Source of the DNA: Escherichia coli
Lineage (GTDB): Bacteria > Pseudomonadota > Gammaproteobacteria > Enterobacterales > Enterobacteriaceae
Strand: one strand, 5' to 3'
Length of the DNA: 64,000 bases
Assembly: GCF_009931435.1 (NCBI RefSeq)
Contig: NZ_CP043414.1
Shown here in pieces: positions 21,056 to 28,335 of this stretch (position 1 is its first letter; every line of letters starts with the position of its first letter). The translations under genes and the position numbers were made by a program. The notes under the pieces are model-generated. The model had not been told where the DNA came from. It ran no database searches and was given only the letters and a program-made list of their open reading frames with translations.

Positions 21056-21862
21056 TTAGCGGCGGAAGGTCGCCCAGACGGGGGCGTGATCGGACGGTTT
21101 TTCCATGCTGCGAATTTCATAGTCGATGCCGGTTTCTACGCAACATTCTGCCAGCGGTTGGCTGGCGAGAAGCAGGTCGATGCGCAGACCACGGTTATCG
21201 TCAAAACCTTTTGAGCGGTAATCAAACCATGAGAAACGATCTGCTGTTTGCGGATTCGCATGGCGGAAGGTATCGACCAACCCCCAGCTCATCAGTCTCT
21301 CCATCCATTCGCGTTCCTCCGGAAGGAAAGAACATTTTCCGGTACGCAGCCAGCGCTTACGGTTCTCTTCGCCAATGCCAATATCCAGGTCGGTAGGACT
21401 GATATTCATATCGCCCATAATCAGCACCGGATTTTCACGCTTGAGTTCGGTTTCCAAATAATTTTGCAGATTCTGATAAAACTGCGCCTTCGCCGGGAAT
21501 TTTATCGGATGGTCGCGGCTTTCACCCTGCGGGAAGTAACCGTTGATCACGGTGACATTGCCCAGCGGCGAGGGGATTTCCGCCATAATAATTCGCCGTT
21601 GTGCCTCTTCGCCGTCGTCAGGGAAGCCGCGACGCACAGCAATCGGCGTCTCTTTGGTCAACAATGCCACGCCGTAATGGCCTTTCTGCCCGTGATAAAA
21701 CACGTTGTAGCCGAGCTTTGCCACCTCTTCGAGCGGAAACATATCGTCATGAACTTTTGTCTCCTGCAGGCCAATCACATCCGGCTGGTGCTTTTCGACA
21801 ATGGCTTCAAGCTGGTGAGGTCTGGCGCGCAGGCCGTTGATATTAAAAGAGACAAATTTCAT
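21056..21862 (-). CDS. xthA: Exodeoxyribonuclease III
   Basis: 268-aa product [21 protein letters not shown]... Confidence 0.95.
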
Positions 21863-22129
21863 AGTCGCTGCCATTTATTCAGATAAAGAGTGCGTGGATG
21901 GTAGCAGAATTTCGCTTTGCTTACCGCCTGTTGTTAAGTGATTTGATCGATGGTTGTTAATGATGTCAACGATGGCGCAAAAATTGCCCGCTTTTGGTGC
22001 GCGCTGCGTCAGAATGGCGCAGTAATTTCCAGTAAATTTCGTCAATGATCACAATTCCAGAATTATATTTTACTTTTGCATAATATTGCGTTTTTTATTC
22101 TTTCTATTCACCATCATCGCAAACATATT

Positions 22130-22216
22130 CACTTTTTATGCACTTTAAATGCATAGCGTACAGTTATAACTCCTTGATTATCAGTTAATCGCCCCCTTTT
22201 ATGCACTTTTATCACT
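22130..22216 (+). promoter_or_regulatory. Putative ArgR operator region (two repeats of ttatgcactttwa) upstream of astC
   Basis: Repeated TGCA..TGCA palindromic motifs seen; ast operon is known to be ArgR-dependent. Confidence 0.3.
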
Positions 22217-22218
22217 GG

Positions 22219-22235
22219 CTGGCACGAACCCTGCA
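22219..22235 (+). promoter_or_regulatory. Sigma-54-type promoter (-24 GG / -12 GC) for astCADBE
   Basis: ctGGcacgaaccctGCa matches TGGCAC-N5-TTGCA spacing; about 70 bp upstream of the astC ATG. Confidence 0.55.
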
Positions 22236-22271
22236 ATCTACATTTACAGCGCAAACATTACTTATTATTAA

Positions 22272-28335
<6,064 letters not shown>

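Follow-up and report, generated by a model that had tools for sequence, protein, structure and literature searches.

The 17-mer CTGGCACGAACCCTGCA (that is, ctGGcacgaaccctGCa), read at positions 22219-22235 on the plus strand of the window, is almost certainly astCp2, the promoter at which transcription of the arginine succinyltransferase operon astCADBE depends on sigma-54 (RpoN). Throughout, the window is the whole stretch of 64,000 nucleotides of Escherichia coli DNA that was analysed. The sequence is identical to a site bound by sigma-54 in E. coli K-12 and its conservation across the Enterobacteriaceae follows the pattern of a sigma-54 promoter. The promoter has already been characterised and its recovery here is, in that respect, an ordinary finding.

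Identification of the promoter and its genomic setting

On the plus strand the 17-mer stands in the context ...tatcactggCTGGCACGAACCCTGCAatctacattt..., with the GG dinucleotide at 22221-22222 (-25/-24) and the GC dinucleotide at 22233-22234 (-13/-12), and the 10 bp between the two dinucleotides are the canonical spacing. A preliminary description of this DNA had claimed a sigma-54 signature with correctly spaced -24 and -12 elements at these positions, about 70 bp upstream of astC; both the string and the 10-bp gap are confirmed, and the distance to the astC ATG (22308) measures 74 nt from the C of the -12 element and 72 nt from the end of the 17-mer. Compared with the consensus TGGCAC-N5-TTGCW, the sequence TGGCACGAACCCTGCA has a single mismatch, a C for T at -15. 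The motif lies in the 433-bp intergenic region (21875-22307) between a divergent open reading frame, which ends at 21874, and a plus-strand open reading frame that begins at 22308; four more open reading frames, overlapping or adjacent, come after it. In the annotation of a RefSeq genome with 100% identity in this region, the divergent gene is xthA and the plus-strand genes are astC, astA, astD, astB and astE, followed by spy. The transcription start (Table 1) was predicted with a published rule that places it 19 bp downstream of the motif centre (PMC4591121), and its position was transferred from K-12 to the window; the A at the predicted position is invariant in 80/80 sequences of the comparative set described below.

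Folding of the leader RNA revealed no structure (z = +1.48) and an Rfam scan of 21800-22400 gave no match, and on these two grounds a riboswitch or leader-RNA reading of the region was rejected. A scan of 21850-22350 for promoters of the sigma-70 type found none.

Table 1. Features of the xthA-astC intergenic region and the ast operon, in window coordinates (negative numbers are relative to the predicted transcription start)
Feature	Position	Strand	Remarks
NtrC-like enhancer site 1, TGCCCGCTTTTGGTGCG	21985..22001		Centre about -253; 3 mismatches to TGCACCN5GGTGCA; putative assignment
NtrC-like enhancer site 2, TGCGTCAGAATGGCGCA	22005..22021		Centre about -233; 20 bp from site 1; 3 mismatches; putative assignment
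Strongly conserved 37-bp block, AAATTTCG-N5-GATCACAATTCCAGAATTATATTT	22034..22070		-212 to -176; almost invariant
ARG-box-like site, TTTGCATAATATTGCGTT	22075..22092		10.6-10.9 bits; TG.ATA core invariant; median 7.5 bits across genera
ARG-box-like pair, 3-bp spacer	22116..22154		22116-22133 + TTT + 22137-22154; invariant core TATTCACTTT.TATGCA
Putative IHF site, AATCAAGGAGTTA (consensus WATCAANNNNTTR)	22167..22179	-	Exact match; centre -73, inside the enhancer-promoter loop
Promoter-proximal copy of TTTTATGCACTTT	22197..22217		-49 to -29, abuts the -24 element; TTTATGCA invariant
Sigma-54 core promoter (astCp2), CTGGCACGAACCCTGCA	22219..22235	+	Top PWM match; invariance in 80 genomes; identity to K-12 OS17
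Candidate sigma-S-type extended -10, TCTACATTT	22237..22245	+	1 mismatch to TCTAYRCTT; nearly invariant
Predicted sigma-54 transcription start, A	22246	+	62 nt before the astC ATG; rule of PMC4591121
5' untranslated leader	22246..22307	+	AT-rich, unstructured; Shine-Dalgarno GAGG at 22299-22302
astCADBE operon	22308..28335	+	astC at 22308-23528; RefSeq annotation of a 100% identical genome

Identity with astCp2 of E. coli K-12

The intergenic region of the window is 96% identical to that of K-12 MG1655, and from 22198 to the ATG a single base differs (22288); the K-12 experiments can therefore be transferred to the window sequence. The identical 17-mer is the K-12 sigma-54 ChIP-seq site OS17, whose downstream gene is astC, whose peak and motif centres are 1 bp apart, which is listed with a 'Distance 62' to the gene and which carries the flag 'C' for experimentally confirmed in EcoCyc (PMC4591121). 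The astC site is also among the known sigma-54 promoters in Zhao et al. (PMC2831329), and sigma-54 binding to the Salmonella orthologue has been observed by ChIP-chip (PMC3844500). The Salmonella Typhimurium astC promoter (TGGCACGAATGCTGCAAT) shares the orthologous position and the -24 and -12 elements with the promoter of the window and differs from it in the spacer, which reads GAATG as opposed to GAACC. With K-12 the window shares, in addition to the 17-mer, the flanking xthA and astCADBE genes and all of the conserved upstream elements, which are intact, whereas about 20 substitutions set the two 433-bp intergenic regions apart. These substitutions fall mostly in non-conserved segments of the loop (22156-22197), with a few at degenerate positions of the ARG-box-like sites.

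The control of the operon has likewise been documented. Several papers summarise RpoN, NtrC, ArgR and RpoS as its regulators, and one published paper cites binding sites of ArgR, CpxR and NtrC for astCADBE from RegulonDB. An NtrC ChIP-seq peak at astCADBE in nitrogen-starved cells has been annotated as direct binding (PMC4066584), and ArgR is described as an accessory factor or activator at this promoter (PMC3037356; bioRxiv 10.1101/086108), itself referred to as a weak sigma-54 promoter that is naturally bound by ArgR (bioRxiv 10.1101/086108). These reports bear out the view of the preliminary description that the motif fits the nitrogen- and arginine-controlled expression of the AST pathway. 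A full-text literature search for the sequences of the candidate NtrC and ArgR sites found nothing, looking up the predicted start by its K-12 coordinates brought up unrelated papers only, and astC is absent from the main text of the ArgR ChIP-exo paper.

Within E. coli, the window represents one of the less common lineages. Its intergenic region (21875-22310) is 100% identical to that of strain 2017-02-2CC (human faeces, Viet Nam) and only 90-95% identical to those of 5352 of 5424 complete E. coli genomes.

Statistical weight of the motif

Matches to the consensus TGGCACN5TTGCW with at most one mismatch number 5 in the 64-kb window against 3.5 expected, which is not significant. The preliminary description had proposed a PWM scan as a check, and a matrix was built from 41 E. 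coli K-12 ChIP-seq motifs (Table 1 of PMC4591121) with astC left out. Across both strands of the window this matrix ranks the astC site first, with 17.9 bits; at the same time, an equal or better match occurs somewhere in 14 of 100 Markov-simulated 64-kb windows. Thus, the sequence of the 17-mer taken alone is suggestive and not proof. The decisive points are that it stands directly ahead of the operon in the correct orientation and that it is conserved across 80 genomes, which put the match far beyond chance.

In our judgement it is extremely unlikely that the 17-mer matches by chance, or that sigma-54 binds it without ever initiating transcription. Equally good matches in the simulated windows would allow for the former, and many K-12 sigma-54 sites being transcriptionally silent (PMC4591121) for the latter, but the motif is correctly oriented, with a predicted start 62 nt from the gene start, its -24 and -12 elements are invariant in all 80 genomes and a conserved NtrC-like enhancer lies upstream of it. 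Moreover, the promoter has the EcoCyc confirmation flag (PMC4591121) and expression changes that depend on NtrC and sigma-54 have been reported (PMC4066584, PMC2831329, PMC3844500).

The second-best PWM match in the window, TTGGCATGATTTTAGCA at 62247-62263 on the minus strand (15.5 bits), is antisense within ydiV; it could be an intragenic sigma-54 site of the kind reported for K-12, or a match by chance.

Conservation of the core promoter and the sigma-S-type element

The comparative set contained one genome per species and yielded 80 astC upstream regions (the window and 79 further loci), all from Enterobacteriaceae and spanning Escherichia, Citrobacter, Salmonella, Enterobacter, Klebsiella, Raoultella, Kosakonia, Buttiauxella, Cedecea, Pluralibacter, Kluyvera and others. 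The alignment of these 80 sequences shows sharp conserved islands within an otherwise variable spacer. The sigma-54 motif is present in every one of them, 73-78 nt before the ATG, and T-26, G-25, G-24, C-23, A-22, G-20, T-14, G-13, C-12 and A-11 are invariant (80/80), while -21 is a C in 77 sequences and a T, an allowed variant, in the remaining 3. Positions -18 to -15 vary freely, giving rise to 19 distinct 16-mers, and yet there are zero indels over 22218-22250. Invariant GG and GC elements, free spacer letters and a fixed spacer length are what a sigma-54 promoter would be expected to show.

At -15 (22231) a C or a G is found in 80/80 sequences and the consensus T is never seen. The promoter is thus suboptimal, which agrees with the literature, where astCp2 is called a weak sigma-54 promoter, and it appears from these sequences that a deliberately weak sigma-54 promoter has been conserved.

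The distance between xthA and astC is also nearly constant: it is 411-444 bp, mostly 421 or 432 bp, in 67 of the 72 loci with a divergent xthA. This constancy in the face of heavy turnover between the conserved islands suggests constrained spacing and helical phasing.

Just downstream of the -12 element and next to the predicted start at 22246 lies the nearly invariant sequence TCTACATTT, a near-consensus candidate for a sigma-S -10 element, which is consistent with published reports of a strong dependence of the operon on RpoS in stationary phase. The quality and conservation of this extended -10, along with that RpoS dependence, raise the question of whether the block owes its conservation to a sigma-S (or sigma-70) promoter, its resemblance to a sigma-54 promoter being incidental. 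We consider this highly improbable, given that sigma-54 occupies exactly this 17-mer in vivo in K-12 (PMC4591121) and that the invariant GG (-25/-24) and TGCA (-14 to -11), separated by a spacer of variable sequence and fixed length, form a sigma-54 signature for which a sigma-S promoter would have no need. Most likely, the sigma-54 and sigma-S promoters coexist at this locus rather than compete as explanations of it.

NtrC-like enhancer

Two tandem sites upstream of the sigma-54 promoter resemble the NtrC consensus TGCACCN5GGTGCA (Table 1). With up to 3 mismatches allowed, this consensus has 28 matches in the window against 33.5 expected, so such matches are common by chance. Across the alignment the tandem is invariant precisely at the GC core of each half-site, and the sequence in other genera is TGCACC. 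We infer from this arrangement that the tandem at 21985-22021 is an NtrC enhancer.

Overlapping the NtrC-like enhancer is a further match to the sigma-54 PWM, ATGGCGCAAAAATTGCC at 21972-21988 on the plus strand (13.1 bits). Other genera read GGTGCA-N5-TGCACC at these positions, and the match probably reflects the likeness of NtrC half-sites to sigma-54 elements.

ARG-box-like sites between the enhancer and the promoter

The preliminary description had reported palindromic repeats of the TGCA type at 22130-22216 and likened them to ArgR boxes. The repeats are real: this range holds a 13-nt exact direct repeat, TTTTATGCACTTT, at 22134-22146 and 22197-22209, with the copies 63 bp (six helical turns) apart, and an imperfect 19-bp palindrome, TATGCACTTTAAATGCATA, at 22137-22155. 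Their likeness to ArgR boxes was assessed with a symmetrised ARG matrix made from 14 boxes re-extracted from the K-12 operators of carAB, argF, argA, argG, argD, argECBH and argI, leaving out the autoregulatory operator of argR. The box so modelled is the 18-bp imperfect palindrome WNTGAATWWWWATTCANW, two of which, 3 bp apart, make up an operator, and the training boxes of these biosynthetic operators score 10.7-21.5 bits.

The distal copy of the repeat is part of weak ARG-box-like sites that are conserved across genera. Boxes starting at 22075, 22116 and 22127 have 3-4 mismatches and score about 9-12 bits; the best single register is 22127-22144 (11.2-11.8 bits) and the box at 22116-22133 scores 8.6-9.3 bits. 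The first of these, at 22075-22092, lies upstream of the range that had been described. The boxes at 22116-22133 and 22137-22154, with TTT between them, form a pair of canonical geometry with a score of 11.8; it is one of only 7 pairs in the window that exceed 10, but its score is far below those of the biosynthetic operators. In a scan of the aligned positions in 75 sequences (the window and 74 non-Escherichia genomes), the registers of the ARG-box-like sites have medians of 7.5, 8.6, 11.0 and 5.4 bits against a profile median of -13.9 bits. In other genera, the right-hand TGCAT of the distal repeat reads TGAAT, which is the canonical half-site.

The promoter-proximal copy does not bear out the earlier likening to ArgR boxes. 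Taken as a full ARG box, 22200-22217 scores about -1 bit in the window, with a median of 1.0 across genera, and its conserved part is the left half, TATGCA, only; this copy is thus a half-site at best.

These properties leave some room for another reading, in which the TGCAC repeats (22134-22155 and 22197-22217) are NtrC half-sites or the sites of another protein and not ArgR boxes. TGCAC is also an NtrC half-site, the proximal copy scores poorly as an ARG box and the palindrome, of the form TATGCA-N7-TGCATA, has its half-sites 1 bp wider apart than in the canonical ARG box. Neither repeat, however, is among the matches to TGCACCN5GGTGCA at up to 3 mismatches, on account of which the repeats were rejected as NtrC sites; the distal repeat falls in the best-conserved ARG-like registers (medians of 8.6-11.0 bits), with TGAAT as its second half in other genera, and the literature places ArgR at this promoter (PMC3037356; bioRxiv 10.1101/086108). 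We therefore regard this reading as rather unlikely, and the reading of the weak conserved ARG-box-like sites as ArgR sites, which fits the literature, as plausible.

A second direct repeat, CATCGCAAACAT / CAGCGCAAACAT, occurs at 22115-22126 and 22247-22258, 132 bp apart. The first copy falls in an ARG-box-like site and the second covers +2 to +13 of the transcript, and the repetition is possibly due to chance.

A conserved IHF consensus and a conserved block at -212 to -176

Two further islands of conservation lie within the loop. The first is the putative IHF site at 22167-22179, one of 2 exact matches to WATCAANNNNTTR in the 64 kb; among the 79 other genomes, 76 match the consensus exactly and 3 with 1 mismatch. 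The second is the 37-bp block at 22034-22070. In Kosakonia (L063) and Phytobacter (L065), 2 of the 8 loci that do not have xthA upstream, the block is still found with astC, and it thus belongs to ast; its reading as an element of xthA (a minus-strand TATAAT) was rejected on the same observation. It resembles a CRP site in the right half only, with 5 mismatches over the 16 specified positions of the 22-bp CRP consensus. It also contains an Lrp-like sequence, CAGAATTATATTTTA, which by our own count agrees at 12 of 15 positions with the Lrp consensus. An Lrp ChIP study lists astC as a direct, Lrp-activated sigma-54 target.

It is conceivable, though on balance doubtful, that the astCp2 loop is more densely occupied than by ArgR, NtrC and CpxR, such that IHF would really bind the sequence at -73, in cooperation with ArgR, and CRP or Lrp the block at -212 to -176. 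In the accessible literature, which does not extend to the primary papers and the databases, there is no mention of the IHF consensus or of this block for astC. Both elements are only mildly new material and may already have been described.

Proposed mechanism and implications

Based on the above, we propose that sigma-54 RNA polymerase would bind the GG (-25/-24) and GC (-13/-12) elements as a closed complex that is unable to open the DNA by itself, a step that rests on the published binding data for the identical sequence and on the conservation analysis. Under nitrogen limitation, phosphorylated NtrC on the putative tandem enhancer, some 230-255 bp upstream, would contact the polymerase via DNA looping and use ATP to open the promoter, giving transcription from about 22246. 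Arginine-loaded ArgR on the weak ARG-box-like sites of the loop would boost this activation, probably by shaping the loop in the manner of IHF at other sigma-54 promoters. The term 'superinduction', which reportedly appears in the title of a paper by Kiupakis and Reitzer, is taken here to refer to this raising of activity by ArgR and arginine. The conserved IHF consensus at -73 may assist the bending of the loop, and the overlapping sigma-S-type -10 would provide for expression in stationary phase. The exact sites of NtrC, ArgR, IHF and sigma-S in this scheme are putative assignments made by sequence comparison.

The closest parallel is glnHp2, a weak NtrC/sigma-54 promoter that needs IHF for the bending of its loop. 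Like astCp2, it combines a weak sigma-54 promoter and a distant NtrC enhancer with a site for an architectural protein in the loop. In contrast to glnHp2, the architectural role at astC has been attributed to ArgR, which makes activation responsive to arginine; the astC enhancer is farther away, at about -233/-253 if the sites are assigned as proposed here, and a conserved putative IHF consensus is present as well.

The finding carries little weight beyond a correct annotation, as the promoter is a textbook case of NtrC/sigma-54 control with ArgR as a co-activator. The comparative footprint confirms, cleanly and independently, that all of the regulatory elements are intact in a less common lineage of E. 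coli. The two conserved elements, namely the IHF consensus and the block at -212 to -176, could refine models of signal integration (nitrogen, arginine and growth phase) at weak sigma-54 promoters.
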